Source of the DNA: Schizochytrium sp. TIO01
Taxonomy: Eukaryota > Protista > Bigyra: Labyrinthulomycetes
Length of the DNA stretch: 64,000 bases
Direction: 5' to 3'
Assembly (NCBI GenBank): GCA_004764695.1
Contig: SMSO01000031.1
Coordinates: forward strand, 286,436 to 350,435
Positions 35,175 to 55,350 of the stretch are shown piece after piece. How positions within the stretch are numbered: the stretch's first letter is position 1; each line of letters opens with the position of its first letter. The notes under the pieces are model-generated. The model was not told the DNA's origin. It made no database searches and saw only the letters and a program-made list of their open reading frames with translations. A program made the translations under genes and the position numbers.

Positions 35175-35394
35175 CACGATGCTGCGACGATCGCGACGAG
35201 CACCTGTCTGGACAAAGCTTAGCGCGACGCTGGGCGCTACATTCAAGTTCTAGCCGCCTTGAAGAGCAGCCGCATATGCTCGCGGACGCTTGCGACTTCT
35301 CCACGCGGATCTTGGGGCTTGCCTGCCTGCTTGCCTGGCTTTGCTCGCACTCAGCCCACAAGTACTGCAAGGACTTGGGCGGGATGCCATCTTC

Positions 35395-36239
35395 GAAACT
35401 GTGTTGTCTAAGTTTGGTAGCACCACTGAATCTGTGTTTGCAACGTCGGCATCTAGCAAATATAAAAGAACATACAAAGACTTGATGTGCCTTTTGTACC
35501 TCCAAACATCTCCATATTTTATTCTCTTTGTAATCCTTAAGAATGAATTTTGCTTCGATGTAGCTTGTCTGCGTTCTATTATATCTTCACCTATTCTTCT
35601 AATTTCCGATATTGTTGTATTGCTTGTGTGAAAAAGATTGTATGAAACATTCAACATATCCTTAATAAATCGCTTTAGAGGCAAGTCTTGTATAATACCT
35701 ACTGCGATCCCAAGTGCCTTACAAAGAGAAATATGTATTGACCTTCGTTCTGCATTTCCCATCGATGCGATGGAGTCATCGGGTGAGCATAATTCTTTTG
35801 CATTACTCAATGCAGTGATGACATCAGTGACAGAATACCGTGACTCAACATGGAACCAGACTTTAAGACAGTGTAAAGCAACTCTATATCTATAGGGTGT
35901 TGTATCAATATAGAACTAAAATCATCCTCCAACTGAAAGGCTTTCTGAACATATGCACAAGCCTTAGTGTAATCACCTTCATAATCTCTAAGTAAAAAAC
36001 CTAACAAAATACAGGAGATTATAGTTGATTGCACAGTAACACTACCATAGTACCCGCTTAAAAAATTTCTCCAGATGATCAATGGCGTCATGAAATCTAT
36101 TGGGTTTTAAAAATAAGTAAACAATAGCCTCAATGGAACTCGCACGTTGTGCTTTAAAATGCTGAACGCAGTCACGTTCAAATACATTAACTGTCATTTC
36201 ATTACTGACTAGTTAGTCGAAAGCGCTCATAATGCTCAT
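35395..36239 (-). pseudogene. Disrupted ORFan at the left edge of the island
   Basis: MSIMSAFD*LVSNEMTVNVFERDCVQHF... has an in-frame TAA at 36213-36215, a frameshift in the T-run near 36060 and another near 35810. It runs into GC-rich flank at ~35395. Confidence 0.6.
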
Positions 36240-36262
36240 AGTAATGACGATAAAAAAGACCT

Positions 36263-36613
36263 CTTTCCCTCTTATAATACAATTAATATGAGGAATCGTA
36301 AGAATAAGGGGGTTAGCTTTGGAAAGAATGTTATTTGTTCTGATGTCTTGGTGACAAGTTCTCGCGAAGCTATCAGGACAAAAGTTGAAGAAAAACTCCC
36401 TGGGCTCTCTGGAGGCAGAGCCCTTCCACGAACTTTTCAAAAATGCGAAGCCACAAGCATCTTCTAGGAGCATTCGATTGAAACAGCTAGATCAGAGGGG
36501 GTAATTAAGAAAAAGACTTTTACATTCTGTCCCGAATGCACTCTAATTAATATGAAGAATCAGGAGCTTCTAAAAGCTTTCCCTCTTATAATACAATCAA
36601 TATGGGAGATCGT
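36263..36613. promoter_or_regulatory. Duplicated ~37-bp TATA-containing motif between divergent island genes
   Basis: CTTTCCCTCTTATAATACAATYAATATG at 36263 and 36577, partial copy AATTAATATGAAGAATC at 36545. The repeat is observed; promoter function is inferred. Confidence 0.5.
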
Positions 36614-36793
36614 TTTTCTTTGTTTTGGTTTGAAAAAAAAAGTGAAGGTGTTAGCTATTTCTGTACGAGTTTTGCGTCACTGGTGCCCTACAATTTGTAA
36701 ATTCATTTGACCATCAGAAGGATAAATTTATAGTAGTAAGCCATGTTATAAGTATAAATAAAATTAAAATGAAGCAAGGGACTGTCAATCTGA

Positions 36794-39700
36794 ATGGGAA
36801 CTAGTGGGAAATATATCGAAGGAATACATGCCTGTAATTCATGTGGTGCGTATCTGTTCGAGTGTGATGACTGCGGGATGTTGAACGATGCATCGCGAAA
36901 CATTTATGAACCGTGTATGTGCCCAACGAATGCATCTTTCTTTTGTAAGTGTGATGCTTCCCATGCAAGAAGCTCAGCATCAGCGCCGCATTTCAAAACT
37001 CGCGATGGAGAAGATATTCCTTTAAAAAATATCTCTTTAACTGGTCCTTCCATTCTTGAGCTTTTTGGGCGATCTCGAGTTGATAAAACTAGTGCATTGT
37101 TTGGTTCTAGTGACCAACGAGCCATTATCCCGTCTGATATTCCTTACAAAGAGGATGACGGCAGAAATTTAGGAGATAGTACATACCTTTCGGCACTTGG
37201 TGACTCCAAGCGAACTGGGAAAAATATTCTTCTTACGCTTAACCGAAGAGAAAATGACGAGTTATTGCACCGGAAGGAGGCTGAGTTGAAAAAGAATCAG
37301 TCGAATATAGCAGTCAGTATACCCTTTGTTGATTCCGTAACGCAGAGACAGAAAGAAGTTTTCTCATCGATGCTGGACGAAGTGAAGACAAAGGCAAGAG
37401 AGGAGAAAGTTGGTCTTGAAGAGAAAGTTCTCGAGCTTGGTAAAAAGATTGAAGCAGACGAGATGGTTCGTAAGGGTCTAGAAAACGACATTAGAATACT
37501 GAAGCATTCCTTAAAATATATCCAAGCAACCAAAAACAATCAGACTGAAATGCTGGACAAGCTGAACCGTAAACTTGTTCAGGTCTCACAGCAAAAGAAA
37601 GACCTATCTACAGAAAATTCGAAATTAAAATCCCAGATTCTAGATAACATGGAAAGATATTCTTTTGACGAGAGTGAGGGTGGTGATGACTCCGATGGTT
37701 CGATCGACCCAGAATCGTTTAGTAATGGTCTCGAGGCTCTAAAGGAAGGAAATTTTATTTCAGAGACAGATGCTACAAACATTACAAACATTCTTTTACG
37801 TACCGATACAGAAGATGAGGAAAACATAGTAAGACGTCTCATTTGGAAACTTTTGAAAGGTCAGGGTAGCGACGAGGGTAAGCATGGTTTTCTGAGCTCC
37901 ATTGATCCCTTAGAAAGAAGTAAAATAAAAGAAGCAGATTTCCAGCGTAAATTACAAGATCTATTCTATTCAGGAAACCTTGAAGAGGATGAAATGGAAG
38001 CCCTGATGGAAGTGATAGATGAATGTACATATGGTGAACAGAGAGACGCGATGCTGTCTATTCTGAACTCAGTGATTAAGCACTATGACGAAACGATCCA
38101 ATTCTCAGATAATGTTAGTATATGCTATCCAGAAATCAGCGGAGACACTACCAGACCTGAGAGAAAGGATATCGTAGAACTAATAGTGAAAAGTCTCAAG
38201 GAAATTTTCGGTTCAGCTTTCAGTTCAGATCAAATAGTGTCTGGTGTCGAACAAATGAAGACACTTTTAACGGAGATCAGTGCAGAAAACTTACAAACGT
38301 CCAATCTAATTGATTTAGTTACAAAGAAATTAGAAGAAATTAAAGATCTTCAAGACAAATGTGATACGAAGGATTTAACGAGCACTTTCACTGAAATGGT
38401 TGAATTAGTAGATGGTGTGAAAGAGTTTCATTTTGACTCTGAAAATAAAGATCCTGTGTGGATGCGACTTTTAACCTCAGGGGACGAACTACTTAATGAG
38501 AAGCTAACGACCTACGTTTCATTAGTAAACACGCTCAATGAGATTCTTAAACGCCCGGTGACTACCGAAAACGTTGCTCAGCTGAAGAGTCAACTTGACA
38601 ACCTAAAGACAGACTTCATCGAGGAAATCAAAACGATCGCAGGTTACAAGAAGAACATTGCTACTATTGCGAGCAAGCTAAACTCTGTGGAAAGCTTAGA
38701 ATTATTTGAACAAGTCAAAACTATTGAAACCAGACTGTCTGAGTTTAAAACAAATTTAGAAAGTGCTCAAACGCCAGTTCAAGAATTACCGGAGGAAAAC
38801 GAAGTTACTGAAGTAAATCCTGAAATACCACCTCCTCCACCTTCGAGAGCTATTCCAAATCCTCCCGCCCTGCAGAGAAACCTGCTTTCGTCGCGAGTCT
38901 ATACTTTGAAGGCACCAAAAGGTGAAATGAAATTGATCGAACCAGAATTGTACGATTTTCTGCTGAAGATTGCGGGTCTACCAAAGGAAGAAGGAAGTGG
39001 AGACATTCCTCACGTGAACAAGTCCCTTGATGAGTCTTCTTTAATGATTCCGAACCTACATGAGTTGACAACAGGATACTACCATCTCAACACTTTGTAT
39101 GAGAATACGAAGGCCCTCTTGAAAAAGGGAACCGAAGAAGCAAAGGAGGCCTTGGAATTTGCGAAGAATGTGACAACGTTCGGGCGTTGGTCGAATTACA
39201 CAGTCTATGCGAGATACATTATCTATAAGTTTATTCTTCTCCAAGATAAGAATAAGAAGACTACTCTGACTAGCTTGGTAATTGCTTTGGGATTAAGAAC
39301 AGAAGACGCAACCATCGATCGTCTCGCAGAAGCAATCATCTCAAGAATTATTGAGTCAGACACTATCTCATCTGAGCAAGAAATAGAACTCAAAGGTGCT
39401 CAAGAACAGGAGAGGCTTGCAAAGGAAAAAGAATTGATCCTTCAATCTACGGAATTAGTAGATCTTTCTTCATTGAGCAATGAGAATGTTCAAGAACTTG
39501 CAGTTCAGGAATTAGGATCGAATAATGTCATGACGTCTGCAATGACCCCTTTGGAAATTACAAAGCTTTTCCAGGATGATGGAGCTTCTATTGGTGCCCT
39601 TCGATTCCTCTTCTATGAGATGTTTACTGAGTATGATGATAACAATGTCATCATTGCTCCTGATGAGTCGGACATCAGTGATGATCGCTTAGAACCAATG

Positions 39701-41212
39701 ATTAGACAATCAAACGTCTTCGAATCTCAAAAGACAAAATCGAAGACTTCATTCGACATGAACTACCTCGAGAATAACAAATTTAAAAACCCAATTGTTG
39801 TTGAAGCTGATGACGAACTGTTACGTATCTTGGATTTGGTATTCAAGAAAGCAGATAGTTCGGATCTTACAGATGACGATATCGATAATCAGACATTTGC
39901 TTACTTTTACCGGTCAATGATCGGACCTTTTGCACAGTATAAGGACACAATTATCGATGGGACAGAAATGGAAAAGCTGGTCTCGTTAGTAACGGGACGC
40001 CTCCGAAAAATCTTGAATCTTCTTAAGCATAGTGAGCAAATTATGAATCAGAAGAAGATACAATTTGAAGAAATCGACTCACTACAGTTCACTAACAAAA
40101 GTATCAACGATTTTATTGATGAGATTAGATTTCTGTTGTTGAATCTGGTCTCTTTGAAGGAAGCGAACTTTACAGGTGCAGCGAAGAAAGAAGTAGAATA
40201 TTTGCATATTCTCTTCAGAGTAGTTGGAATTGAGGCAACCTTTAGAAATGTCCTGTATCGTCGCCTCTTCCTGATTGCCGATAAGAAAGAGCACCGAGGA
40301 ATCGTGGAGGAGGATATGATCCCCAATGGATTTTCAATGGTTGGTGCCTTGGATTTGGCGCCATTAATGCTTTTGAAAACAATTAATACACTTTGTGGGA
40401 AAAAGGAGTTCACAGATGACGAAGTGAAACAATACCTCGCAGTGGAAGTATTGACACTGATGAATTTCTTCACAGGGCACTTTGAAGGACATAATCGAGG
40501 TGATCTAGAAGAAATCTTTAGCAAGTCAGATGTTAAGAATTTCCGTACTATTGTCTCACCGCAAGAGGAAATGACGGCAAAGGTGACCCCGCTTGTCTGT
40601 CATGACGTAGTACCAGCACTCTTTAATAAGGATAGCCAAAACGTCACGCCTTTTGATGTAGAACTAAAAATGGCCTGGAAAAAAACTGATAAAAACTCAT
40701 TTGTGAACATTGGTGATCCATATGTTTCAAGAATGGAGTCTTTGAAAATCTTTCAGTTAATTCAACAAAGACTCGGCGATCTAAAACCAATTTTCCCTGA
40801 CATTGGACCGCAAATATCATCTGTTTCAGAACTTAAGACTCTTCAAATTTATGACACAAAGCAAGAGGAAGCTCAATCAGTGGAACTTGTCGGTGACATC
40901 TACACAAGAAGTGAAGAGAAAAAGTTTGCTCTGAAGTTCATTGTCAAGAATTTATTAGTTGAGAATGAATACTTCAAATTAGACAATCCCACTAAAAATT
41001 TACCCAAGGTCAACCCGAGTGCGTCACAACAGTCTTGTATTCTAACGGTATTTCTGAATGATTACATCAAGGTTTGCTTACACCAAGATTCGTATAACTT
41101 ACTTCCAAAACACAAATTTCAATCTGAACTTCAGTTTGCAGGAAAAATCTTTGATGAAGATGATGAGGAAATTGTATCTTTAGTATTGGGCATAATGAGG
41201 GAGGAAACTTAA
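36794..41212 (+). CDS. 1472-aa hypothetical protein: N-terminal Cys cluster, coiled coils, central Pro-rich linker
   Basis: Uninterrupted 4.4-kb ORF. CNSC..ECDDC..CMC..CKC at the N-terminus, heptad-rich aa ~150-290 and 490-660, PPPPPSRAIPNPP. Confidence 0.85.
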   Translation: MGTSGKYIEGIHACNSCGAYLFECDDCGMLNDASRNIYEPCMCPTNASFFCKCDASHARSSASAPHFKTRDGEDIPLKNISLTGPSILELFGRSRVDKTSALFGSSDQRAIIPSDIPYKEDDGRNLGDSTYLSALGDSKRTGKNILLTLNRRENDELLHRKEAELKKNQSNIAVSIPFVDSVTQRQKEVFSSMLDEVKTKAREEKVGLEEKVLELGKKIEADEMVRKGLENDIRILKHSLKYIQATKNNQTEMLDKLNRKLVQVSQQKKDLSTENSKLKSQILDNMERYSFDESEGGDDSDGSIDPESFSNGLEALKEGNFISETDATNITNILLRTDTEDEENIVRRLIWKLLKGQGSDEGKHGFLSSIDPLERSKIKEADFQRKLQDLFYSGNLEEDEMEALMEVIDECTYGEQRDAMLSILNSVIKHYDETIQFSDNVSICYPEISGDTTRPERKDIVELIVKSLKEIFGSAFSSDQIVSGVEQMKTLLTEISAENLQTSNLIDLVTKKLEEIKDLQDKCDTKDLTSTFTEMVELVDGVKEFHFDSENKDPVWMRLLTSGDELLNEKLTTYVSLVNTLNEILKRPVTTENVAQLKSQLDNLKTDFIEEIKTIAGYKKNIATIASKLNSVESLELFEQVKTIETRLSEFKTNLESAQTPVQELPEENEVTEVNPEIPPPPPSRAIPNPPALQRNLLSSRVYTLKAPKGEMKLIEPELYDFLLKIAGLPKEEGSGDIPHVNKSLDESSLMIPNLHELTTGYYHLNTLYENTKALLKKGTEEAKEALEFAKNVTTFGRWSNYTVYARYIIYKFILLQDKNKKTTLTSLVIALGLRTEDATIDRLAEAIISRIIESDTISSEQEIELKGAQEQERLAKEKELILQSTELVDLSSLSNENVQELAVQELGSNNVMTSAMTPLEITKLFQDDGASIGALRFLFYEMFTEYDDNNVIIAPDESDISDDRLEPMIRQSNVFESQKTKSKTSFDMNYLENNKFKNPIVVEADDELLRILDLVFKKADSSDLTDDDIDNQTFAYFYRSMIGPFAQYKDTIIDGTEMEKLVSLVTGRLRKILNLLKHSEQIMNQKKIQFEEIDSLQFTNKSINDFIDEIRFLLLNLVSLKEANFTGAAKKEVEYLHILFRVVGIEATFRNVLYRRLFLIADKKEHRGIVEEDMIPNGFSMVGALDLAPLMLLKTINTLCGKKEFTDDEVKQYLAVEVLTLMNFFTGHFEGHNRGDLEEIFSKSDVKNFRTIVSPQEEMTAKVTPLVCHDVVPALFNKDSQNVTPFDVELKMAWKKTDKNSFVNIGDPYVSRMESLKIFQLIQQRLGDLKPIFPDIGPQISSVSELKTLQIYDTKQEEAQSVELVGDIYTRSEEKKFALKFIVKNLLVENEYFKLDNPTKNLPKVNPSASQQSCILTVFLNDYIKVCLHQDSYNLLPKHKFQSELQFAGKIFDEDDEEIVSLVLGIMREET

Positions 41213-41380
41213 TTACCTCCCTTTGTTAAAATATCTTGAAAGACAGATTACAGGGAACTTTCAAATTAGGATTTAAATTAATGAAGTATCATATCTTCTT
41301 CTATTCTGTATGAACAATATTATTATTATTATTATTATTTAAAACTAAGGGAACCATGACCTTGAAATGACTTGGCATTA

Positions 41381-44035
41381 TTAGACAATCTCGTTGTTCT
41401 CTAGATGCGCCTCTGTATTGTTGGTCCTTGACAAAGTCCGGAAATCCTTTGCCGAGTCAATGCCAAATGCCTCCGCGAGCAGGTTAAAATCTTCTTCGCG
41501 GAGGGCTTCGCTGCGAGACTTCTTGCTGCGCTCCAGGTCGATAAACTTCACATTGCTAGCATCATCGACAACAATATTCCGCAATGCCACATCTCCATGG
41601 ATAAAACCAGCCTTATGGATCTTGTCAAGAGCTAAAGCAGCCTTCCAGTACAGTTCCTCAAGTCCACCGTACTCTTCTAATTCCTGCGTATGTAGATCGC
41701 ACAGTGATTTACCACACTGCTCCGTCGCAAAAACTACCAGGTTCAGAGTCTCGTCGAGACCGCAAGCTGTTACCCGTGGTACTACATCACCCTGCAGCGC
41801 GTGCAGAGCTGCGTATACTTGACCCTCATGTCCAAGTGCATACGCAGAATCATGCAGTGCGTAAGTCGTCTTGACGAAGCTAGAGACGCCGTTGATCATG
41901 ATGTCCGGATATCCTACGGCTTTACCGCCCAAAACAGTTCGCATATTGGGGGTCTCCAAGTTAGGGCCCAGTTGAAACGCAGCAAAAACGGCAGCATTTC
42001 TTTGTGGTCCACGATTTCTAGATCTGCGTGCCCTTGTGGAGTTGCCATTCCGACTTGTACTATTGTTAGTACTGGCGCTAGAACTGCCTTCCGAAGAACG
42101 TTGTTCGACTGAAACAACGACTTTGCCTTTTATAATAGTATCCACGACTGTTTTTGTGTCGTCACTTCCGTCCTTTAGCCATTCTAAGTTCATATTATCA
42201 CGGGTAGGGTTGTGATCTTTAAGTGCACGATAGAGAAAAACGAGCCACGCTTGACCAAGTGACCAGTTCCCTGGATTGGAACGACCTTCGTTATCGTTTC
42301 TATTTGAGTAGAAAGCTTCGCTCACCTTAACAGTCCGATTTTTGGAATCGCGACGGAAAAAGTACGTCTGCGGTCCATTCGTCAATGCACCAAAATTAAC
42401 GGCTGTAGACACCATGTAAAGACAAAGTTGGGCAACGGGACTTTTTATAGTACGAACAACCGGACTTCTCCTCTTCGCGGCGCGAGGAAGAGGTTCTCTC
42501 ACTTCAGTTTCTTCAATGACCTGTTGAAATTTCTTGTATTTATCAGGATTTTCCTTTTTTGCAACCTCTTTGTTTCTAGGTGCCCACTTTTCGAGGTAGT
42601 AGCTATTAATCAGATCAATAGGACGTTCCTTCAAGGTTCCAGGTGTCTTGCACTCGAGCATAGTCATCATTGCCTTGGTCAACAGGGTATTTAGCTTAGC
42701 AGATAGTTCTTCGCGCCTTTTTCCTCTCGTGTTAACCTCATCCCTCAGTTGCTCACGAATCTCCTCCTCTTTATTCACATCCGTGACAGATATTTGCACA
42801 TCAACCCTTCGATGATAAATAGACGCTGCAACTTGTATTGCTGCTTCCATTTTTGTGTCGATCTCAACGTTTTGGTTTTCCCCGACTGTTATTATGTCGG
42901 ATAAAACATCCGTCATTCCAACGTCTAAAATGTACCCCAATATCTTCATCATGTATCCATGGACTTCAGATTCTGGGAAACAATCATAGGATCTATCACG
43001 CAGAGCATAATATTTTCCAGTGAACATGTTCCTCTTTCTGGAGAACAGTTCAATTGCAGCATCAGACTCGGGATCCTTCTCAATTTCCCAACCTTCAGCG
43101 TAGAGTGGCATGAAGTATTCAGGGACCTCTGTCGTAGCTTTCGACATCTGTGATGTCTGGGCTTTTCGACCCTTCGGCTTCTCGCGTTGTGCGGAACTTT
43201 CGGCAGCGGACTGGCTCACAGCAACTCGCTTTGCTCTATCATCGAATGAGTCTTCGCGGTCCTCTTCGTCTTCGCGGTCCTCTTCGTCTTCATTCTCTAC
43301 GTCTTGACGGTTCCTTTTCGACGTTGTTGAAAAGATTCGCTTGGTTTCGATCGTTGCTGGATCTTGAGCGAAGTGATCCCAGATGGTTGCAGTGTCTTCG
43401 AAAGTAAGAATTTTCTTGATTAACTCGTCGCTGTAGGCGTCGTTTGCATCTTCATCTTCATCTGGAAGAAGGCTTCCTTCATTACGAAGCTGCTCAACGC
43501 GAGAACGCAGCTTTCTCTTCAAGCGTCTATTTTGAATAAGCTCTACCATCTGTTCGTCGTCATTAACGAGAGCGATGACCTCCTCCGCAGACATTTGGCT
43601 GATAACTTCCGGAGTCAGTGAAGTAGGACGGCTGGACGAAGAAGAGGGTTCCCAGGTGTTTGCGGACCTTATTTCCAGATCCGCGATTTTCTGAAGTAAT
43701 TCGTCTTTACGCTTTCGATTTTCCTTTTTACTTTTCCCCGGAAGAAGAAGACTCTCTGTCGCTAACGAAGTAATGTGGAGCTGAAGATCTCCGAGAAGGT
43801 CGTCATCTTGAATAAGCTCTAGCATACGTTCGTCGTCGTCAACGAGAGCGATGAGCTCCTCCACAGACATTTGACCGATATCTTCCTGAGTCAGTGGAGG
43901 AGGAGGACGGCTGGACGAAGAAGAGGGTAGCATGGCTCTCCCTGCTGATGCGACGGCAGAGATACCGCGTCTAAGTACCGATCGCTTGCCCCTTCCAGCA
44001 TCACCGCCACGTCTTTGGTCATCGTTGTCAGCCAT
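41381..44035 (-). CDS. Crinkler-like effector: duplicated N-terminal helical unit + PD-(D/E)xK REase-like domain + small kinase domain
   Basis: MLECK...VAQLCLYM...FGALTNG.QTYFFRR (CRN REase pattern). HEGQVYAALHALQGDVVP...IHGDVALRNIV...FIDLE (kinase). First ATG is at 44035. Confidence 0.75.
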   Translation of the reverse strand: MADNDDQRRGGDAGRGKRSVLRRGISAVASAGRAMLPSSSSSRPPPPLTQEDIGQMSVEELIALVDDDERMLELIQDDDLLGDLQLHITSLATESLLLPGKSKKENRKRKDELLQKIADLEIRSANTWEPSSSSSRPTSLTPEVISQMSAEEVIALVNDDEQMVELIQNRRLKRKLRSRVEQLRNEGSLLPDEDEDANDAYSDELIKKILTFEDTATIWDHFAQDPATIETKRIFSTTSKRNRQDVENEDEEDREDEEDREDSFDDRAKRVAVSQSAAESSAQREKPKGRKAQTSQMSKATTEVPEYFMPLYAEGWEIEKDPESDAAIELFSRKRNMFTGKYYALRDRSYDCFPESEVHGYMMKILGYILDVGMTDVLSDIITVGENQNVEIDTKMEAAIQVAASIYHRRVDVQISVTDVNKEEEIREQLRDEVNTRGKRREELSAKLNTLLTKAMMTMLECKTPGTLKERPIDLINSYYLEKWAPRNKEVAKKENPDKYKKFQQVIEETEVREPLPRAAKRRSPVVRTIKSPVAQLCLYMVSTAVNFGALTNGPQTYFFRRDSKNRTVKVSEAFYSNRNDNEGRSNPGNWSLGQAWLVFLYRALKDHNPTRDNMNLEWLKDGSDDTKTVVDTIIKGKVVVSVEQRSSEGSSSASTNNSTSRNGNSTRARRSRNRGPQRNAAVFAAFQLGPNLETPNMRTVLGGKAVGYPDIMINGVSSFVKTTYALHDSAYALGHEGQVYAALHALQGDVVPRVTACGLDETLNLVVFATEQCGKSLCDLHTQELEEYGGLEELYWKAALALDKIHKAGFIHGDVALRNIVVDDASNVKFIDLERSKKSRSEALREEDFNLLAEAFGIDSAKDFRTLSRTNNTEAHLENNEIV

Positions 44036-44666
44036 TTTTCCTTGTTTCGGTTTTGCAGGGCTATTTGCTTTTTCTTTTGCTGGAGTGAAGGCGCGTGCAG
44101 CAGTGGAAACAGAGGTAGTGTGATGTGAGGGGGAAAAAAGAAGGAAAACTTTACTTTCGTCTATCACTGTCGATAGAATTAAATCTACTCTACTCAAAGT
44201 CCTCTAATGACACTAGATAGTACCTTCCTAGTATCTACTTGACTCCTTTCTTTTCTTTTTTTTTTTCAATTAAAAAATAAAATAAAAGATAGTTTGCCTA
44301 ATTGATTAAGTATCTGAACTGTTTAAAAAAAAATAAGTCGTCTTTTTTTGTCTACCAGAGAGATGGGAAAACACAAAAAAGTATAGGTGTGTGGGTTGTG
44401 TATTCTTCCCCCGCTCGACTTGAGAAAAGCGTACCCCTGTTTCATAAAAGGGTAGCTCGTAGGATAGTTGAGTCATTCTGAACTCCGAGAATGCGGTTCC
44501 AATAAATCAAGAATTAATGAAGGGAGTGGAAAACTCCTAATTGACCAGTAAACTAAACTAAACTATTCATTTCTTTTCTTTTCTTTTCTTATTAAAAACT
44601 AAATAGTCGACTCCCAGATATAAGGTTGGTTACCTTTTTTTTTTCTCTTTCGTGTTTTCAATCTTG

Positions 44667-45752
44667 TTAACTTGCTACTTTACAATAAAAAGTAGCGTGA
44701 GGGTAGTCTTTCCATAATGAAATAAGGTAGGGGTGCATAACAAGGATCCCATCATAGATGTGTCGTCCTGAGTTATAGACTATACTTGGTGGGTTTATTG
44801 TAGAGAACCTGTTGATAAACATGTCATAAATAGTGACTTTTGCACCTTCCATAGTAAGCATTTGTGCAATTTCGGAAATTGGAGATTCATCGTGCTCTGA
44901 AGCCCCTGGTTGATTTCCGAATCCTACTATCAGGAATGCCTTTTGGTGTACTTTATCAAGGTCGCCTGAGCAGTATCTATTTACGATATCTTGGAAGATG
45001 AAGCGCGGGCGTAGACAGAGCTGTTCAATAGCTGTGGTTAATAAGGGAAACTTCTCTTCACCACCGATCAGCGATGCAAAGTTATGCTTGATTCCTAAAG
45101 ATGGGTGGTCATTTTGATAATTGGTCCAGATAAAGTTCGAGCCTTCAATTGCATCACGCATCGATATATCTTTGCTAAAATTGGCAGAAAACTCATTGAT
45201 AGCAGCTTGAATAGCAGCTCTTTTTGCCAAGTCCAGAAGAGTTGCGCACTCAGCAGCTTCTGCAGTTTCTGTAATGTAGATGTGAGTATAAAACAATGAT
45301 AAAAATGGCAAAATCACTTGTGCAGCTTCTCTTGAGTTTGCTCCTAACAGTCTTGGTGAATCACGCGGTGCTTCAAATGGAAGCGAGCGACACCGATGGA
45401 TAATGTTTGGGGAATATGCGATGGGAATTTCACCTGCAGTTGCCTTAACAAACTTCCCAACTGTACCAACTGGGATTACAGTTTCTATTATGACCATCCG
45501 GGGCTTGACGTTTTTGATAATTGGGATGGCACAGAGCAATGTTTGAATACTAACTGATGGCTCAAAATCCTGTCCAATACATACTAGACATATATCGATA
45601 TTTTCCAACTTTGCACTTGCATTTCCCAGCTTTATGTCATAAATTGTAGCAGCTATGTCATCGTGGTTACTAAAATGATCAAGATTGTTTTTAATCATGA
45701 TTCGACTTTGACTGCTTTCGCCAATATTTGCAATTAATAAAACCTTTTGCAT
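44667..45752 (-). CDS. Divergent UDP-glucose/GDP-mannose/UDP-ManNAc dehydrogenase-family protein
   Basis: ETVIPVGT (cf. STVPVGT), IAYSP, AEAAECATL...AINEF (cf. AEMAKL..N...NEL), IVGFGNQPG..HDESP (cf. LGLAFKP..DLRESP), GAKVTIYD. Confidence 0.75.
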   Translation of the reverse strand: MQKVLLIANIGESSQSRIMIKNNLDHFSNHDDIAATIYDIKLGNASAKLENIDICLVCIGQDFEPSVSIQTLLCAIPIIKNVKPRMVIIETVIPVGTVGKFVKATAGEIPIAYSPNIIHRCRSLPFEAPRDSPRLLGANSREAAQVILPFLSLFYTHIYITETAEAAECATLLDLAKRAAIQAAINEFSANFSKDISMRDAIEGSNFIWTNYQNDHPSLGIKHNFASLIGGEEKFPLLTTAIEQLCLRPRFIFQDIVNRYCSGDLDKVHQKAFLIVGFGNQPGASEHDESPISEIAQMLTMEGAKVTIYDMFINRFSTINPPSIVYNSGRHIYDGILVMHPYLISLWKDYPHATFYCKVAS

Positions 45753-45968
45753 GATCTCCCGACAATAACCATTAGCACACTTGCTATATAAAGGAATAGT
45801 ACTCTCCTTATATAAAGATGATAAATTACTTTCAAGTACAAGATAGGAAAAATAGAAATCCTCTTAATTCTTATATGTAATGGAAAGCTTTTCACTAAGT
45901 TCAGTGTGGGAGACTTGTAAGAACACAGTAGCATTTTTCCTCAATTATTTGCATTCCTTCTTTAACGA

Positions 45969-46418
45969 ATGAATGATGTTTACTACGTACCTGTAGTAGA
46001 GACCTTGCATGCAGGAACGTTAGTCTCCAAGTTTTTGTGTCCTATCAAAGTTCAATTATTCCGTTCATCCTCGGATAATAATTTGTGGTGGAGGTACACA
46101 AGATCTGCTCCAGAAATCCGTGCTGCGAGTCAATCAAGAATATTGACAGTTCCTTGTCCGGGAGAAGACGTACTTTTATCACACTATCTCGCGCATGCGA
46201 TACACTCGTTTTATCTCTTCAACGAAACAATGAACCTGGAGCGGATAGGTAAATTCTCATTGAGTAATTTTACTTTCACTTATTCTATAGATCATGGTGA
46301 GATCATCTATGTTCCTTTTCTTCCCTGGCATGCAGTATCAGTAACCTTTAAAAGTGGTGCTGGTGATGATCTTGAGTCTGGATATATGTCCATCAGTGTT
46401 TGTTCGCCTATGGTGTAA
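45969..46418 (+). CDS. Hypothetical protein (ORFan)
   Basis: 149-aa ATG-started ORF filling the gap between island genes; no recognisable motif. Confidence 0.6.
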   Translation: MNDVYYVPVVETLHAGTLVSKFLCPIKVQLFRSSSDNNLWWRYTRSAPEIRAASQSRILTVPCPGEDVLLSHYLAHAIHSFYLFNETMNLERIGKFSLSNFTFTYSIDHGEIIYVPFLPWHAVSVTFKSGAGDDLESGYMSISVCSPMV

Positions 46419-46552
46419 CTAAGAATGGTCAACAGAACAGCTGGTCTTACAGTGAAGCATAAGCTTTTAATTACTTTTTTTCTTCTTTAAGCTTTAAACC
46501 ATTAATAATAATAATAATTATAGTAATAATATTAATTATAACAAGTAAGACC

Positions 46553-47365
46553 ATGGAACATATTATTCGAACAGAAACAAGCTTAAAGCTTTACAGGTTT
46601 ATTATTCGAGTAAACATAACTTTGGATGAGTTTGCTCATACTCACCGGAACTGTGTCCTTTCAGTCTCCAGTGACTGGCGATGTACGTATTACGAAAAGG
46701 CCTTCACGATGAACATCTTCGATGCCAAAAAGTTACCCTACCCTGCGCTCGTTTGCATGGTTTTTACAATGACAATGGAGTCCGACGCATTCATTCCAGT
46801 ATTTGAATCGTTGTTTGGAGTTACAAAAGAAGATATTGATAAACCGACCTTGGTAAATTGGGTAGAGAAGTACTATACACCTCACAAGCCCCTTGATCTC
46901 GAGGGTTTGTTTCTTAGCTTGAACTCCTTGGCATCAGTTTCACTAAAAGTAAAAGGTCGAAAACAAAAACCACGGGTACTGCCCTCATATGATGTTCATA
47001 AAAGTGAAGAGCTTGAAGGGTATGACAGTGATTATAACAACAGGAGGGCAAATCAATTTGCAAAGTCACTAACTCTTTCTACCAAAGAGGATGACGGCTC
47101 TAGTCCAGCCCTCTCAATGGACCAGCAATCATTCTGTGCACTCGTAGTACATCCATTTCCAGAAGCGACACATCTTGCAATCGAGGTCTTTTCGAGCGGT
47201 GTGCTCAATGTAGCAGGGATCCCTACAGATGAAATCTTTGATCACTTAACACATTATGTAAATACGAAGCTTGGTCCTTTGATGGAACAACACGCTTTAA
47301 AGAGTAACGAGTTAAACGAAAGAGAAAGTGAGGAAGAAGATCGGTGGGATTTACTTTTTGGATAA
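46553..47365 (+). CDS. Divergent TATA-binding-protein-like protein
   Basis: C-terminal LAIEVFSSGVLNVAG matches the TBP repeat motif (xIFSSGK+x+TG). It is preceded by SF.ALVV-type strands and followed by a helix. The rest of the protein is too divergent to be the host TBP. Confidence 0.6.
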   Translation: MEHIIRTETSLKLYRFIIRVNITLDEFAHTHRNCVLSVSSDWRCTYYEKAFTMNIFDAKKLPYPALVCMVFTMTMESDAFIPVFESLFGVTKEDIDKPTLVNWVEKYYTPHKPLDLEGLFLSLNSLASVSLKVKGRKQKPRVLPSYDVHKSEELEGYDSDYNNRRANQFAKSLTLSTKEDDGSSPALSMDQQSFCALVVHPFPEATHLAIEVFSSGVLNVAGIPTDEIFDHLTHYVNTKLGPLMEQHALKSNELNERESEEEDRWDLLFG

Positions 47366-47914
47366 GCAAGCTCTATCATACCAACACGCCTGAAGTATTG
47401 CGTCTGCGACATCATCCTGTTTTGCTTTTGGTACTTTAGCCATATCTTTTGGGAAAAGTTCATGGGCTTTAACAATCGCAGCAGCTTTATTTGCCCTTCG
47501 ATTGTTTTCTGCACCACGAACGACCTTCCCTGCGAGCTTCCGTGAAGCAGCACCTGTTTTGAAAAATGTCTTGACTGACTTTGAGTGAACGATTTTGTAT
47601 TCAAAACCTTCACAGATGCACATAGAAACGATTGAGTACTGCGCAATGTACATTTTCAGTCTCATCTGATCCTCAATGAGGATTATACTCGCTTCTTTGA
47701 GCATAGGGTAAATCTTTGAGGTTTCCTTGTTAAACATAAGGTTGTAGATCCCCATTGGAATATTTCTTTGCGACTTCAGCGCCTTGAGGGATGGTGCGAA
47801 GGCGATTCGATCACAATAGACCATCTTTTTGGTTGAGCTATCATAAAGAGCTACGCCAATGTTTATGATTCTGATGTCAATGCTGAAGATTAAGCTACTT
47901 CTTCTGTCTCCCAT
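47351..47914 (-). CDS. Viral-type RuvC/A22 Holliday junction resolvase
   Basis: FSIDIRIINIG (DxGxxN motif), ILIEDQ, K-rich helix and KQDDVADAILQA: the acidic motifs of poxvirus A22/NCLDV resolvases. Overlaps the TBP-like gene tail-to-tail by 15 bp. Confidence 0.85.
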   Translation of the reverse strand: MGDRRSSLIFSIDIRIINIGVALYDSSTKKMVYCDRIAFAPSLKALKSQRNIPMGIYNLMFNKETSKIYPMLKEASIILIEDQMRLKMYIAQYSIVSMCICEGFEYKIVHSKSVKTFFKTGAASRKLAGKVVRGAENNRRANKAAAIVKAHELFPKDMAKVPKAKQDDVADAILQACWYDRACLSKK

Positions 47915-48005
47915 AATTTTCAATCAGAACTTGTTCATCTTGGATTCAATATATAAGTACAAATGTGAGGGGAATGTCCAGTAAGGGCACAAAAGAGTTG
48001 GACTA

Positions 48006-51000
48006 ATGGTTTTACAGACTATAGTCTTGTTGGTTGTCTTGTTCCTATGCAAGACCAACGCACAGGAAGAGACCCCTGCGCCAACTGCCGAATATGACCT
48101 AAGTATTTGTGAAAGTTCCTTAAGTGTTGGTAACTATGCGACTATTTGGGCTAGTCCCGACCGGAATGTGATGTATGGATGGGGAGCTAATACCCTTAAG
48201 GAACTCAGTAGCGCTAGTGACCCCTCGGCATCTTTCATCGAGCCTTTCAAGATCAATCACTCGACTATTAGTTCGCCGATGCATCCTAGAGAGGCACTTT
48301 TCGCGTGCGTCCTCGATGGACTAACCTATTAAATCCACTGCGTCGGTTCAAATTCAGGATACCTGATCTCAAAAGAAACAACTAGCAGTACGAGTACAGT
48401 GTTCACCGAGTTCACTGAGCTGTCGGATTTTACAAGTGAGTACAGTTCCTTTGCAGTATCAAGGAACTCCTTGTGTGCAGTTACACTTAATCAAACTGTC
48501 GTAACATGTTCGGGTACCAATAATTTGTATCAAAACGGAAGAGGTACAACCTCAAACGGTCGCGACGTTCCACCTTTCGACACCCTAAGTTATGAAACGA
48601 ATCTCCAAGAAGGGGTCACAATCAAGAAGTTAGAATCTGATAAGATTGAGAATCACTTCTGTGCACTTCTTAGTAACAACACTGTCACGTGCTGGGGCAG
48701 CAACACAAATTATGCACTTGGAATCACCGGGTCGACGAGCCTTCCAAGTCCAACGTGGGTCGACACAGAAGAACAGGGTAACATTAAAGACATTACCTTG
48801 GATGAACAAAATATCGGACTTATTACTTTGGATGGTCGTTTCCTATTTACAGGGCAAAATAAAGAAGGAATGTACTCAAACGATGTTGATTCAGGTAGCT
48901 ACATCGAAACTGGACCTGTTGAAGTCTTTGATTCAGGTAACGACAACATTGCTTGTATCTTCATGTATAGGAACTTCTGTCTTCGAAAGACAAATGGAAC
49001 TGTTTTTTGCAAGGGTGAGAATGCCTATGGACAATTTTATAGTTCCAAAGTGAACTCATTCTCCAACTTCATTGAATCGGACAGAATCACTGCCGAGACT
49101 GTTGTATCAGTGAATTCTCAAGTTATTTGTGGTTATAATCTGACTGATGATACAGTTAGTTGCTGGGGAGCCAACAACTACCCACAATTTGACGTAAGTG
49201 GAACTGTCCCGTCGACACCAGTTCTTATGGAAGGTGTTTCATGTGCGCCTCTACCACCAACTATGGCACCGACACTTTACCCAACGATGTCTCCAACTGT
49301 CTATCCAAAGAGAGAACCTACTACACCTTTCCCAACAACTTCAGAGATGACTTGCGGAGTGAACATTGCAACTACTACCGCAGGTGCTTCCTACTATATT
49401 AGTGAAGAACGCAACGCCGTAATTGCTTGGGGCAATGGCTATAATGAGGTTGGATTATTGGGTTTGGGGAGAGATGTTGGAGACATTGACTATCACCCCC
49501 CGACGAAGATACCTGGCTCTTATGTTAACCCAGTCCAAATTTCTGTTGAACCGACCAGTAGTTTCGCTTGCGTCCTTGATGGATATGACGATTCAGTTCA
49601 TGGCATCGGAAAGGACCCCACTGGGGCTATTACAGGAACAACGAATGCTATTCTGTATGAGATGACCCGTTTTACTGCGATTGATAATGATGAAACGATC
49701 AAAAACATTGATGAAATTTCAGTAGGAATTTCAAATATGTGTCTGGTTATTAATAACAGGACTGAGATAAAGTGTATTGGAGGAGCTGCCTATGGTATGA
49801 ATGGCGCAGGTGTTACTGGGACCACGTCAATTCCAGTATATGCTATCAACAGTGCTGCTAGCGCCGGTGCAAAAATCATTCAGCTTGAAAACAACATGTT
49901 CACATATTGTGCACTTTTCAGTAACAACACACTTTATTGTTGGGGTGACAATGACAACAATCCTATTGGACTTCCTGATTATATAAGTGGAAATAGTCAG
50001 CTTTCCCAAATTTTGATTCCTGACATGAGCTTCACTAAAGTCACTTTCGGACAGCACAACATTTGGGGACTTGGAACTGATGGGAAAATTTATGCTTCAG
50101 AAAAGAACACCTTCCAGGTAATTACGAGTGAGTGCTGAAAGGTGATACTGATTAGCGTGAGGTTGACTGTAAGAATGAAGGCAAGAAGCTTGATGAAGGT
50201 TATAAGAAGGTCGATTTAAGTGTTAGCGAACTGCTGTCCTGAGGAATGAAATCCAGGACAGATGGATTCATGTAGTAATTAGGGAGATTAAGACATTCTT
50301 GAATGTGGTTAGAGATAATCGATGGGGTTAGGTTATCCAACCTTCTCCAACCATTGATCCAAGCTAAACCAAGCTTGGGTATCCGTGATGTGCATTTACA
50401 CTTCTAGTTCTTGGCTTCAGCATCCTCATGAGTCTGTCTGCCTATTCTTGTTCTAATGTAAACCTTATCTCTATTGGGTTTTACAAAGGGACACCAAGAA
50501 CTCTAGCAATGTCTTGTCCACTAGTTCCTTCGATTGGAGATCTCAGCAGTGAGCTAGCGACGAATGTTTTCACTTCTGAATGGATTGTCGTTGATAATTA
50601 CAATATTGAGCCTTGGGCATTTGAACAAGGTTTCTGTGTTAAGAAACGGGACAAAAAGACATACACATCACTTCGCAGATTTGATCGAAAATACGAGGAT
50701 GCCAAATCTAAGACAGTTCCGGAGCTCTAGTAACCTATATGTTGCGCTTTTCGAAGACGGGACTGTTAAGACCTGAGGATATAATGCTCCTTTGCGGATT
50801 GGAAGTTCATCTATGGGAACGAACGTGAAGACTCAGCAAGTAATTGAAGAAGCCTATTGCTTACCAAAGTTTGCTCCGTCGATGGCACCGACTCAAATTC
50901 CAACAGAAGCACCTACCTCAGGTCATTCTTGTTCAACGGAAGGGCAGTCCAATAACTTCATGGGTGCTACTGTCAATACGAATCTCAACCAGGTCTTGAT

Positions 51001-52030
51001 GTTTGGAACGGATTACTATGGCAAGTATCTATCGGAAAATGGTCAAAAGAGTGGTACTATTGCATTGTATGATTTGATCTCAAGCCTGGACTACGGTTCA
51101 CGTGCAGAAAGCAAGTTATCCCCGGGAAATAACCACGCATGTTTAATTGACCCATCAGATGACTCTGTTTGGTGTTGGGGAACTGGTAGCTACGGAAGTT
51201 TGGGTAACAAGAACAGTGCATCTTCATCAACACTTGCTTACCCAACAAAAATTAACATTGAAAGTCCCGGACAAGGCAAAGATGTCGTTGTTACAAACGC
51301 AGCTACCTTCTTCTTGCGCAATGACAACCTAACCGTGAAAGTCATGGGTAAAAACGCCAACAATATGTTTGGAACTGGAGGAAGTAATGCTATACAAAGT
51401 ATGTTTACTGTTCAAGATCTAGGTGACCGAGTAATTAAACGGATATTCGCCGGTGGGCCATATTCTGTTTGCCATATGTACGAAGACAATCAAGTTGCAT
51501 GTGCTGGAAGCACTTACGGATTCTGTCATGAAGCACAAGTATCAAATTCTGTAGTCACATATTGTACAGGTAAATTTGCAAAAATTAGTGACTTTAGCAA
51601 CCCCTCAAACTTTAACAGCTGTGTAGTCAATATGGAAGGGCAGATCGTTTGTGCTGGTAACACGAACACTTACGGACAAATTGACCCATCCGCTTTTGGA
51701 ACAGCAGATTTTACCGGAAAGGTTATTGAAGGTATGGGAAATGATAACAAATTCGTTTTGCTTTCAAATGACTTCGCCTGCGGAGTCAAACAAAATTCAG
51801 GGGACGTTATTGCTGGGGCAGAAACAATTATGGTGTCTTAGATGGAGATAGCACGAATTTAGATGCAATTTATACAACTCCGATTAAGATCCAAAATATT
51901 ACAGGAGTTACTGCCATTTGGGGAAGAAAGGCACTGTTTGCTAGAACGAAGAATGGTGACCTGAAAACTTTCGGTGAACATAATGGTAATTACTTTAAGA
52001 GTTTGACAGGTGTTTATGCATCACTCTGGA
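48006..52030 (+). pseudogene. Secreted RCC1/BLIP-II-like repeat protein (three modules with PTxAPT linkers), pseudogenised
   Basis: Signal peptide MVLQTIVLLVVLFLCKTNA and repeated HxC....V.CWGxNxxG motifs. Lesions: TAA 48330-48332, insertion 50133-50548, frameshift ~50665, TGA 50774-50776 (KT*GYN), frameshift ~51808 (GDV/YCWGRN). Confidence 0.85.
50133..50548. mobile_element. Solo LTR (416 bp) with 5-bp target-site duplication
   Basis: Starts TGCTGA and ends TCAGCA (TG...CA inverted ends). GTGAG is duplicated at 50128-50132 and 50549-50553. Excision restores the frame VITSE/LATNVF. Confidence 0.85.
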
Positions 52031-52398
52031 ACATTTGTACACATAAGGTATTCTTCGTTACAAAAGGCCTTGGACGTAGAGTAGGTTGCGGCTGCTTCTT
52101 TGCAGGTGGCGTGATCACGACTGGTGCAATATACATCTGGACCCTCTAGAGGACATAAGTAGTCATGAAAGCCATCAATTGTCTTCGGAGGATCAAACAT
52201 TGTAGCAAACATTTGGACTGTAAGGTCAAGATCCAATCCAGTCATCTTCGACACTGCAATTTCAATACTATGGTGGTGTGAAGATAAAAATGAGGGAACA
52301 TGTTCAAAGGAGTCAGAATGTGAAACTAAGATAGCGTCAACAAACATTTGCAAAGTCTCTTGGACAGGTCCCCTAGTCATTGAAGAGTAGTAATTCAA
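52021..52398 (-). pseudogene. ORFan fragment
   Basis: 125-codon open stretch with non-ATG start, abutting the truncated RCC1-like gene and an opposite-strand fragment. Confidence 0.4.
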
Positions 52399-52890
52399 CC
52401 AAAATTAAAAAGGCAACACAAACGATCGTAAACGAGCTTGTCAAAAGTCAAACGAATGAGACTCTTAAAACAGGGACTAATTTGACAGTCTTTATTGATG
52501 GTTCAGAATCAGTCACTCTTGACGCAGACTTAATTTATAGTCTTGGCGGAGACGAAGAGCTTCTCGGTGCTGCATTGAAGGAGCTCGTTTGTAACTACTG
52601 AGAAAGAGTACAAATACATCTTTGCGATATGACTTTGCAAGGTTAAGAGGAGCACCCATCTGATGCAACAGTGTCAAAAGGTGTCATGATGGCATGATGG
52701 GTGACGTATAACACTGCATGTGACTCGCCCATGGAACGAAGGGTATCAAGCAAGCATCAAAAGGAGTTTGCAAAGCAAAATCTGCAGGCAGACCCGAAAT
52801 ACCAAAGCGACCAGAAGCACTTGAATCTATCAAGCACATTCAACAAGACAACCACTATCATCTAAGACATTTCCCCAAATACCTCTAAGT
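52380..52890 (+). pseudogene. Decayed ORFan with several in-frame stops
   Basis: The frame of ORF 52380-52601 continues as protein-like sequence through about four stops (VCNY*ERVQ...QG*EEHP...MA*WVTY...). Confidence 0.45.
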
Positions 52891-52892
52891 AA

Positions 52893-53459
52893 TCATAACC
52901 ACGTCTCATTACTACCCATTGCATGTAACTGACTACCCTCATTCATTCCTTCTGCGTATCGGAGGTAATAATAAGTCTGCTCAGTTTCCAATGTTGCACA
53001 CATCAGTGTAAGAGTTGCAGGTATCATGACTAGGGCCTCATAAATACTCATCGAGATGAACTCTGGTGTCTGCATAACTTCTTTGAGTGATACATGAAAG
53101 TTATGTCTATTTTCATTGTGGCCTGTGCGAAGTCCCATTGGACCAGAATTATACTCATGAAGTTTGTTTAGCTCAGTCCCATTCATGATTAATGCCATAA
53201 TAAACTCTGTTAGTCTCGCTACTTCAATGATCATCGGAAGTCCCATCATTATAAAGATTGAAAATGTTGCTGCAACGTCTCGCTTGATCTGAGCATCAAG
53301 TGGGTTACTAGCTTGGTACTTAAATAATATGTAAGACAAAACACTTATTATAGAATCTCCGTGACCATCACTAAAATTAAACCAATTTCTTATTACAGAC
53401 TTTGAAAAATGCCGATCACAAAAAGTCACCGTTAGGCGGACTTGCATTATAATCGACAT
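52893..53459 (-). CDS. Hypothetical protein (ORFan)
   Basis: 188-aa ORF with an A-rich context before the ATG (AAAAATG), as for compact viral genes. Confidence 0.6.
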   Translation of the reverse strand: MSIIMQVRLTVTFCDRHFSKSVIRNWFNFSDGHGDSIISVLSYILFKYQASNPLDAQIKRDVAATFSIFIMMGLPMIIEVARLTEFIMALIMNGTELNKLHEYNSGPMGLRTGHNENRHNFHVSLKEVMQTPEFISMSIYEALVMIPATLTLMCATLETEQTYYYLRYAEGMNEGSQLHAMGSNETWL

Positions 53460-53548
53460 TTTTCTTTTCTTTTAGAAGTCTTATCAGTGGTCCGACTTTG
53501 TTTGAATTCATAATGTGAACACTCATCCAGGAGAAAATGTAAACGTAA

Positions 53549-54232
53549 CTAGCTGTTACCTTTACGGACTCGGTGTTTAGGGTAGGACTTAGCTTGTTGT
53601 CTGTAGGAGTCAATCATCGCGAAATTGATCGGGAAATTAAGGTTACCGTCTTTCCCAAAACCATGTCGATTTGAATATGGGCCCTTACGAGACATAACAG
53701 TTGCAGACTTCTCTGAAATCAGTAGCATTTGATAAAGTTCATTCATCTGCTCATCACTCAGATTTGTGTGCTTACCAGAATCTGTAGGGTTAAGAACCGG
53801 CAAAATGTCACCTAAGTTTACTCCCTTCGATGCCTTTAGGGATTGGTTATGAGAGTCAGCATTGGGCTGAAAGTGTCCAGTTTTCAGAGGCTCTTCCCAC
53901 TGATTAAATTCATCATAAAGTTTGTACCTATATTCATAGAGGTTGTTAATCTCTTCAAGATACAAAGATGGGTTCCCAACAGCAATTTCCTTCACAATTT
54001 CGAACAGGTCAAAGTTTGCAAAGTCTTCTTCACCTGCTTCTTCAACTTTATCTACTGAGAAGTATTTTTTGAACCAGGAAAGTTGCTCTGGTAACTCGAC
54101 CATACTTAAAATTGTATGACTGATAGTTTTCATTTGTTTGACATTATTAAGCTCTAATACTGTTTTAGTCGAGCTGTCATAATTTAAACTGCTCTTCAGA
54201 AATACCGCCATTCCATAACGCACATTACACAT
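53549..54232 (-). pseudogene. ORFan, probably 5'-truncated at the right island junction
   Basis: 227-codon AT-rich ORF that begins exactly where composition switches to the GC-rich flank. Confidence 0.5.
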
Positions 54233-55350
54233 GAGCTCGACATGAATTTCGACCAGCCCAGTGCTGACGCGAGATGACCATTGCGGTCATCGTCATCATG
54301 ATGTCCATCATTATGATGATGGACATCATGGTAATGTGCATCACGACGACGACGACAACGAAGACATCTTGGGCCGCGCAGCCCTCTCTCTAGATCTTCA
54401 AGCCCTGCTGCCAAGTCGAGGCAGCTCGCTCGCTAGCTTCTGTGGCACGTCGCCAATTCATGACAGCAAACAACCCGCGAGCTCGCGGCTTCGCCTTCTC
54501 AAGCCCGGCCGCAATTCAAGGCAGCGAGCTTCCGCCGGGTATCGGCAGCTCCTTTCTACCCATCGCGGTGCAGCTGCTTTGGATTTGGCTTCACTCAGTG
54601 CCTCAAAATCTCGCCTCTGCTCCCAGCTTTCGTGTGAGCAAGCACGCCGTTGCTTCTGATGTTTTCACAATCTCGGGCCCAAGCTTGTCCACGGTTTCCG
54701 CCATCGCTAGCTGAGCTAGCTATAGCTACAGCTGGTCACGAGCTGGCCAGGTCCGCAGGTTCGAGGTGTGGAGCCCAGCTCATCGCCATGCACCTCGATG
54801 CACAAGTCGTCGCGGCTTTGCTGACGCTGTTCAAGTTGCTCAGTTCTCTGGTCCTGCAGAACTTCGAGGTCTTCTACGCCTCGGGATCGACGAGCTCCAC
54901 GTCTTGGCCGTCGCTCTTGCTTATCTTGTGCTGTGGAGCAGCGTTTCCGCGCATAGCAGCCTCTTGGAACACGAGCCCATGAGGAGAAGAACCCTTCACA
55001 GGCAAGGCCGACCGCCTTGTCCGACGTGGAGATAGATTCCACTCCACTCGGTCCTTTCACGCTACCGATGCAGTCCTCATGGCGTTGGAGAGCTCTGGGC
55101 TGCTGCTTTCTTCAGCTTCAAGTCGTGGCTGGCGAAGCGTGTCGGGAGCGGAGCCGCGAGGATGGTAATCGGTTTGTTGGGAACCTAAACTGCAAACCGT
55201 AAGCAAACGAACGAGGGCAGTCGAGACAAAGTCGAAACCACAGAAGCTGCCGCATCAAGCTCTCCGCATCACTGCCTGGCGCCTGTCAGGTTAGATTTGC
55301 CTTCATTTCCTCGTTTCTTGGACCTCATTTGACTCCCGATCTCAATAAAT

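Follow-up and report, generated by a model that had tools for sequence, protein, structure and literature searches.

A low-GC island with a TBP–resolvase gene pair in Schizochytrium sp. TIO01, probably a degraded endogenous mirusvirus fragment

The window analyzed here is a 64,000-nt stretch of Schizochytrium sp. TIO01 DNA (contig SMSO01000031.1), within which an island of low guanine-plus-cytosine (GC) content was delimited at 35395–54232. Its GC content, its change points and the contigs that bridge its edges suggest a composite endogenous viral fragment. GC is 0.406 in the island, compared with 0.478 and 0.476 in the rest of the window and 0.573 in each of the ~1-kb flanks. Likelihood change points were located at 35388 (2dLL 81) and 54249 (2dLL 88), and the longest series of consecutive 1-kb windows with GC below 0.445 numbered 12 and 21 in the island and at most 4 elsewhere. 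Approximately 83% of the island is coding when the pieces of broken genes are counted, and the neighboring genes are a guanylate kinase (PF00625, E 3e-58) on one side and a WD40 gene on the opposite side. The guanylate kinase is also represented in the MMETSP and EukProt collections. These results agree with a first-pass annotation of the same DNA, which had described an AT-richer, densely packed block with sharp compositional edges between guanylate kinase and a gene it named SEC12. Its label 'intronless' is based on the uninterrupted reading frames. The block is not homogeneous, and its viral DNA is interrupted by a host-like kinase gene (41381–44035, GC 0.47) and a solo long terminal repeat (LTR; 50133–50548). 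The description of its open reading frames (ORFs) as mostly without relatives was only partly borne out: among 11 coding units, a family was assigned to 5, a metagenomic relative was found for 1, and the other 5 yielded no relative. Synonymous codon use was virus-like in all 11 non-kinase island ORFs (+0.04 to +0.19; 7 of these 11 formed the leave-one-out training set of the scoring) and host-like in all 10 flanking genes (−0.007 to −0.22), with the island kinase at −0.005.

Two genes of the island converge tail to tail with a 15-nt overlap, namely a divergent TATA-binding protein (TBP; 46553–47365, plus strand) and a RuvC/A22-type Holliday junction resolvase (47351–47914, minus strand). Both had been proposed in the first-pass annotation and were confirmed by profile and fold. 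The 270-aa TBP is of the type found in the AurliV mirusviruses, with an extra central insertion of ~40 aa. It has no Pfam match by itself; 30 relatives were recovered among 1.84 billion representatives, 16 of the 29 aligned family members match PF00352, and the family profile matches solved TBPs. Its structural model (predicted local distance difference test score, pLDDT, 83.8) matched the TBP fold at E 2e-8. The 187-aa resolvase matched the PHROG resolvase family phrog_1770 (E 3e-5), and an allele of it, P0001, folds as RuvC (pLDDT 91.8, E 4.5e-6). Residues D13, E81, D168 and D171, which we take to correspond to the RuvC catalytic set, are kept in the window protein and invariant across 24 aligned relatives. 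Position 15 of the window resolvase is Arg (codon AGA), in contrast to the Gly15 found in all 24 relatives, including P0001; Gly15 is also retained in other versions of the island (P0001, P0003). Nothing significant was returned from the PDB sequences when the TBP alone, the resolvase alone or the resolvase profile served as query, and predicted viral structures included no close TBP relative, the best viral structural matches being just 7–15% identical.

The closest sequences to this pair come from environmental viruses (those of L001/L002, P0008–P0026 and P0041–P0113), with 35–43% identity for the TBP and 39–48% for the resolvase. The metagenome contig L001 carries the same gene pair with an 11-nt overlap (TBP 43%, resolvase 40% identity), and its neighboring genes encode an FG-GAP protein as well as four products common in large viruses, namely an HD-domain protein, a dCMP deaminase, Hsp20 and a sugar transporter. 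A second contig, L002, has the same pair and, directly upstream of its TBP, a counterpart of the 149-aa conserved gene that precedes the TBP in the island (45969–46418, plus strand; 24% identity over 127 aa, pairwise E 7e-8). Environmental viruses of this type appear intact, whereas the island is decayed. The resolvase profile recovered 78 relatives (clusters), of which almost every one is environmental and two lie on contigs of 306 and 313 kb, and 5 of 20 TBP relatives looked up share the length of their longest contig with a resolvase match, including contigs of 1481 and 3426 bp. Syntenic, expressed host orthologues, named in the first-pass annotation as a sign against a viral origin, did not appear; the relatives of the TBP and resolvase are environmental or mirusviral. 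Prokaryote genomes and phages contained no close relative, nor did the metagenome set scanned first or the viral contigs, for which the queries were the resolvase, TBP, P0014, A3, P0059 and sugar dehydrogenase.

In a TBP tree of 31 rows, the window protein belongs to a clade of 23 rows, supported at 97/95 with a bootstrap that had not settled completely, with L001 nearest and P0027 outside. P0027 came from the unbiased TBP search and differs from AurliV-2 ORF 955 at 3 of 200 residues, read by eye; since the clade excludes this AurliV-2-like protein, the island would represent a further lineage. A quick resolvase tree of 89 rows, with two short matches left out, separated the in-group from distant IMG/VR resolvases with a support of 97. 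These IMG/VR resolvases are only 24–27% identical to that of the window, and among the 27 IMG/VR loci that encode them none had a strong match to the window TBP type and 5 had weak ones. The two weak matches inspected are canonical TBPs in a different arrangement. In these two loci (L010 8463–10456 and L019 8286–10453), a canonical TBP, a small zinc-ribbon gene (TFIIS-like by eye) and the resolvase are clustered, which constitutes a second, distinct TBP–resolvase neighborhood.

AurliV-2 (LE-Chr15), a chromosomal mirusvirus integrant of Aurantiochytrium limacinum in the order Soporavirales (PMC12606086; bioRxiv 10.1101/2023.06.15.545109), is the nearest described system. According to the gene tables of Chung et al. 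(PMC12606086), its resolvase (178672–179259, forward) and TBP (179230–179832, reverse) are also convergent, with a 30-nt overlap. AurliV-2 resembles the island in being endogenous, in its GC content of ~41%, in the divergent TBP family and in a similar resolvase. It differs in its size (~270 kb), its subtelomeric position between rDNA arrays and its full virion module, whereas the island spans 19 kb, lies among housekeeping genes and is decayed. The island TBP is 29% identical to P0027 (E 2e-25), bears the extra insertion and belongs to a different clade, and the neighboring genes are not those of AurliV-2. In the episomal AurliV-1 (CE1), the resolvase and a divergent TBP are convergent, 0.8 kb apart, and RCC1-like surface-type ORFs are present; this virus, in contrast, is circular, intact and virion-producing, with two small ORFs between the pair (PMC12606086). 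The only named close relative of the window resolvase is Hondaea fermentalgiana FCC1311_094512 (P0081), from another thraustochytrid assembly, which belongs to the same broad resolvase family (45% identity) and has an altered C-terminus suggestive of decay. A specific sister link between the two proteins was not recovered in the tree, so P0081 probably reflects a separate virus or event. It may also point to a further decayed fragment of mirusvirus origin in Hondaea, in addition to the AurliV-like one.

Public sequencing runs were used to examine the junctions. Among the 24 runs listed (11 studies), 20 hold part of the stretch and 16 hold at least half of the sampled words; contigs were compared in 8 of the 24, and the following counts refer to the contigs listed. 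The right edge is crossed by single contigs in 6 of 8 runs (X1, X10, X3, X17, X19, X20) and the left edge in 2 of 8 (X17, X20). These bridging contigs carry more than 100 letters on each side and come from runs of different studies. The island is thus physically joined to host DNA, and the absence of junction-spanning reads, which the first-pass annotation had listed as a sign of misassembly, was not encountered. The right junction exists in two versions, 43 letters and an 11-nt indel apart over ~1.9 kb (X10, X19 and X20 versus X1, X3 and X17), and since there are two, the insertion likely predates the split of these run groups. At the left edge, a minus-strand island ORF (35395–35762) continues into host DNA as far as 35250 and is truncated, as had been claimed for both sides; at the right edge, the ATG of the ORF merely coincides with the boundary, the frame being open to 54286. 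Terminal repeats at the edges did not exceed 9 of 12, and a flush target duplication was likewise not found there. Island ORFs also gave no integrase match in Pfam, and the island therefore does not conform to Polinton- or transposon-like elements.

Signs of decay and copying were observed in this locus. The RCC1-repeat gene (48006–52149, plus strand) is broken into three pieces that match the RCC1-like domain at E 5e-31, 4e-12 and 2e-5, with a stop at 48330, an LTR insertion, breaks near 50730 and 51806, and indel variants. Its hydrophobic start and Pro/Thr linkers suggest that the product was likely a surface protein. The 416-bp element at 50133–50548 begins with TG and ends with CA, has a 6-bp terminal inverted repeat and is flanked on both sides by a 5-bp target duplication (GTGAG), with the RCC1 reading frame the same on either side. 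In the runs, contigs with loose ends accumulate at both of its boundaries (50133 and 50548), and depth is very high. The element is a solo LTR and belongs to a high-copy host repeat. Skips of 421 nt, consistent with an empty LTR site (shorter side 24–31 letters), were found in all 4 DNA runs. The CpG observed/expected ratio of the solo LTR is 0.35, compared with ~0.8–0.9 elsewhere, and internal joints near 50476–50480 suggest several LTR subtypes. Together with the stops, frameshifts and the G15R change in the resolvase, this insertion documents the decay of the window copy.

Each DNA run compared contains several differently damaged versions of the island. Variant contigs include TBP frameshifts, kilobase deletion joints, empty-site joints and a garbled TBP version (P0022); a joint from 46741 to 52854 is present in both X1 and X5. 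Interior contigs were deeper than equally AT-rich contigs from 52.9–54.8 kb by factors of about 2.4–3.8 (X1), 1.9–4.6 (X2) and 3.3–6.6 (X10), in the three DNA runs with a listed contig at the right end. A second dispersed repeat (52650–52880, edges approximate), marked by a pile-up of depth and variants at 52680–52761 and with no convincing target duplication, lies where multi-version DNA turns into single-version DNA. The 884-aa kinase gene (41381–44035, minus strand) is likely a host insertion. It comprises an N-terminal repeat, a weak restriction-endonuclease-type segment (HSDR_N_2, E 0.003) and a C-terminal kinase (Kdo/Pkinase, E ~7e-5), and occurs in many variant versions; a 276-bp internal repeat was also noted. 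A deep contig (X10 record 11) joins the 1472-aa ORF of the island (36794–41212, plus strand) to this kinase gene, so the kinase likely preceded copying. The LTR insertion likely came after it. The layout of the kinase gene may be that of Crinkler-type endonuclease-plus-kinase genes; a literature search for such a gene in Aurantiochytrium found nothing.

Taken together, these data favor the interpretation of the island as a degraded endogenous mirusvirus fragment that was fragmented, duplicated and invaded by host elements, to which we assign a probability of roughly 0.8. The bridged junctions, the viral-type gene pair and the decay support the first-pass proposal that part of a large DNA virus was integrated and rearranged here. 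That annotation had considered the phylum not fixable, which can now be qualified. The TBP family and the TBP–resolvase arrangement are shared with AurliV and point to Mirusviricota, and the donor was most likely a mirusvirus, neither AurliV-1 nor AurliV-2. Mirusviruses are relatives of the herpesviruses. In the accessible part of Gaia et al., TBP and resolvase are listed as mirusvirus core genes; 59% of the mirusvirus genomes but 0% of those of nucleocytoviruses contain the TBP cluster, a cluster that may differ from that of the island TBP, and the resolvase by itself is not phylum-specific (61% versus 22%). As for the order, the available account of Okeanovirales and Styxvirales describes them as intron-rich and without a resolvase and other replication genes (PMC12768974), and they were rejected as donors because the island has a resolvase. 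Soporavirales, Demutovirales or cryptic orders may have supplied the fragment; the window protein lies outside the P0027 branch of the TBP tree, and the capsid–terminase–portal markers of Soporavirales are absent from the island. Short family motifs were not found in the published supplements that could be searched, and the order is thus left unassigned.

The following sequence of events would account for the locus. Viral DNA from a persistent infection would have become linked to host DNA with neither terminal repeats nor a target duplication, the outcome expected of end-joining repair, and a host-type kinase gene would then have come to lie inside the viral segment. A segment of ~35.4–52.7 kb may subsequently have been copied to a few other places, where the copies decayed differently. 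Finally, an LTR retrotransposon may have entered the RCC1 gene of this copy and recombined to a solo LTR, the island as a whole presumably being inactive. In the parent virus, to judge from the protein families, the TBP would have assisted the initiation of viral transcription, and the branched DNA formed in replication would have been cleaved by the resolvase.

Several points weigh against this reading. As the first-pass annotation had reported, no capsid, terminase or polymerase gene was recognized in the island with Pfam, PHROGs and NCBIfam, nor was a portal or triplex gene, and in the absence of virion genes the features that define Mirusviricota are missing. The same three collections gave no match to a double-jelly-roll capsid, A32 ATPase or VLTF3; all of these negatives come from general profiles applied to a fragment and carry no information on the capsid type of the donor. 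The comparison with AurliV proteins was visual or used P0027 as a stand-in, and the link of the resolvase to AurliV is visual only, because AurliV-type resolvases are absent from the 78 resolvase matches. The window resolvase has a long branch (2.0) and an unstable placement in a tree of 34 of 75 rows, and no environmental relative is tied to a classified mirusvirus genome. According to the accessible text of the Latimer preprint, an A22 resolvase is also present in thraustochytrid skiaviruses, which exchange genes with mirusviruses. Among the contigs listed, none contains the whole island. The excess depth of interior contigs does not equal a copy number. The 1472-aa ORF (4.4 kb) is intact, and most of the collapsed interior contigs are more than 99% identical to the window sequence, which leaves room for a larger resident element.

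Such a resident element is the basis of the alternative that survives best, in which the island recently entered the chromosome from a third mirusvirus that still resides in the same cells, either as an episome or as a larger integrant, and is the source of the extra depth. The near identity of the interior contigs and the intact long ORF would fit this scenario, as would the versions that keep Gly15 (P0001, P0003) and lack the LTR, and episomal mirusviruses are known in these hosts from the published accounts available. We nevertheless regard it as unlikely, since the other versions also have frameshifts and kilobase deletions, the 1472-aa ORF and the host-like kinase lie together on one deep contig, and depth ratios were low, with similar values in four studies. 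In the Collier preprint, as far as its accessible text goes, the long-read assembly contains two elements and one pseudogenized extra polymerase, which is relevant only if the species is the same.

A nucleocytovirus donor, for example a skiavirus or ariadnavirus that acquired the TBP–resolvase pair from a mirusvirus, is less probable still. Skiaviruses infect thraustochytrids, count A22 among their core genes and have many carbohydrate genes, and some of their genes originated in mirusviruses, as stated in the accessible preprint texts. However, the word 'TATA' is absent from the main texts of both skiavirus preprints and 'TBP' from the one searched, with supplements that may bear on the matter; predicted viral structures provided no close TBP relative, and the window TBP type was not strong in any of the 27 distant-resolvase IMG/VR loci. 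An assembly chimera, a contaminant or an ordinary fast-evolving host gene cluster deserves hardly any weight, for even though the block is not contained in full in any listed contig and the run that matches best could be the source of the window itself, the edges are bridged in runs of different studies, two thirds of the listed runs hold much of the stretch, a host LTR with its target duplication sits inside, and the relatives are environmental or viral.

That thraustochytrids harbor mirusvirus DNA in endogenous and degraded form has been published before, which limits the surprise of a degraded mirusvirus fragment at this locus. In the portions available, the Collier preprint describes AurliV-2, homologues in Hondaea and one extra pseudogenized viral polymerase in thraustochytrids, Zhao et al. 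report mirusvirus DNA in eukaryotic scaffolds, and a degrading mirusvirus has been reported in Schizochytrium aggregatum. Degraded giant endogenous viral elements are also known in Euglena and Acanthamoeba; these elements and that of S. aggregatum share erosion, transposon invasion and duplication with the island, and their hosts or donor viruses differ. The published literature searched, with subscription papers and several supplements outside reach, contains no description of this island or of a third lineage. Most mirusviruses are known from metagenomes only and lack a host, and a fossil insertion of this kind testifies to an earlier infection and links a clade of 78 resolvase and ~23 TBP clusters to a culturable protist. 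Compared with the published thraustochytrid integrant, which is near-intact and subtelomeric, the island represents a later stage, duplicated, eroding and common to many cultured samples. The TBP–resolvase pair may also serve as a practical marker for mirusvirus fossils without a capsid gene. A bolder proposal, which is doubtful on present evidence, is that a third mirusvirus lineage beyond AurliV-1 and AurliV-2, nearest to a widespread group of ~300-kb aquatic viruses, colonized these protists, may survive in a larger or active form at another place in the same genomes, and has right-hand genes that the host perhaps transcribes through the junction; if the third lineage is real, the island would be the first host label for the environmental clade.

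The remaining coding units of the island are less informative. The 1472-aa ORF has a Cys-rich start and no match among 7986 scored candidates. The atlas searched gave no usable match for this protein or the 149-aa protein, the best score for the former being 0.76, a lead only. A divergent nucleotide-sugar dehydrogenase-like protein of 361 aa (44667–45752, minus strand) matched TIGR03026 at E 6e-13, below the cut-off of that model, and phrog_9148 at E 7e-6, with no PDB match at E 0.01. No family was found in Pfam, PHROG or NCBIfam for four minus-strand ORFs: the edge-cut ORF (codon score +0.19), a 94-aa ORF (35807–36091, +0.14), a 188-aa ORF (52893–53459) and the 227-aa right-edge ORF (53549–54232). 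The last two have virus-like codon use, and the right-edge ORF shows indel polymorphisms at 53585 and 54228 between runs. An antisense ORF of 119 aa at 52021–52380 was treated as probably spurious. In a visual comparison aimed at capsid, terminase, portal and triplex proteins, no ORF of this fragment resembled those of AurliV-2. An Rfam search of 33–57 kb returned zero matches.

None of the listed runs that contain the stretch is recorded as RNA. Four runs guessed to be RNA left 36.8–39.5 kb uncovered and covered the kinase gene and 50.5–54.8 kb; they were not used to argue for silence or expression. The kinase gene is deeply covered in all four, and contigs from these runs extend from the right end of the island into the right flank. 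The flanks at 34480–35394 and 54233–55290 share the GC content of 0.573, contain no recognizable gene and are possibly halves of a decayed host sequence. Their interpretation as halves of one interrupted host gene is unsupported, with no meaningful Pfam match in 12 frames and no consistent coding frame. A 37-bp direct repeat (89%) occurs at 36263–36299 and 36577–36613, within the non-coding interval that precedes the 1472-aa ORF. Near the end of the window, an inverted repeat pair of ~390 bp with 78% identity (62395–63377) and an imperfect palindrome (63840–63958) were observed, possibly a DNA transposon remnant.

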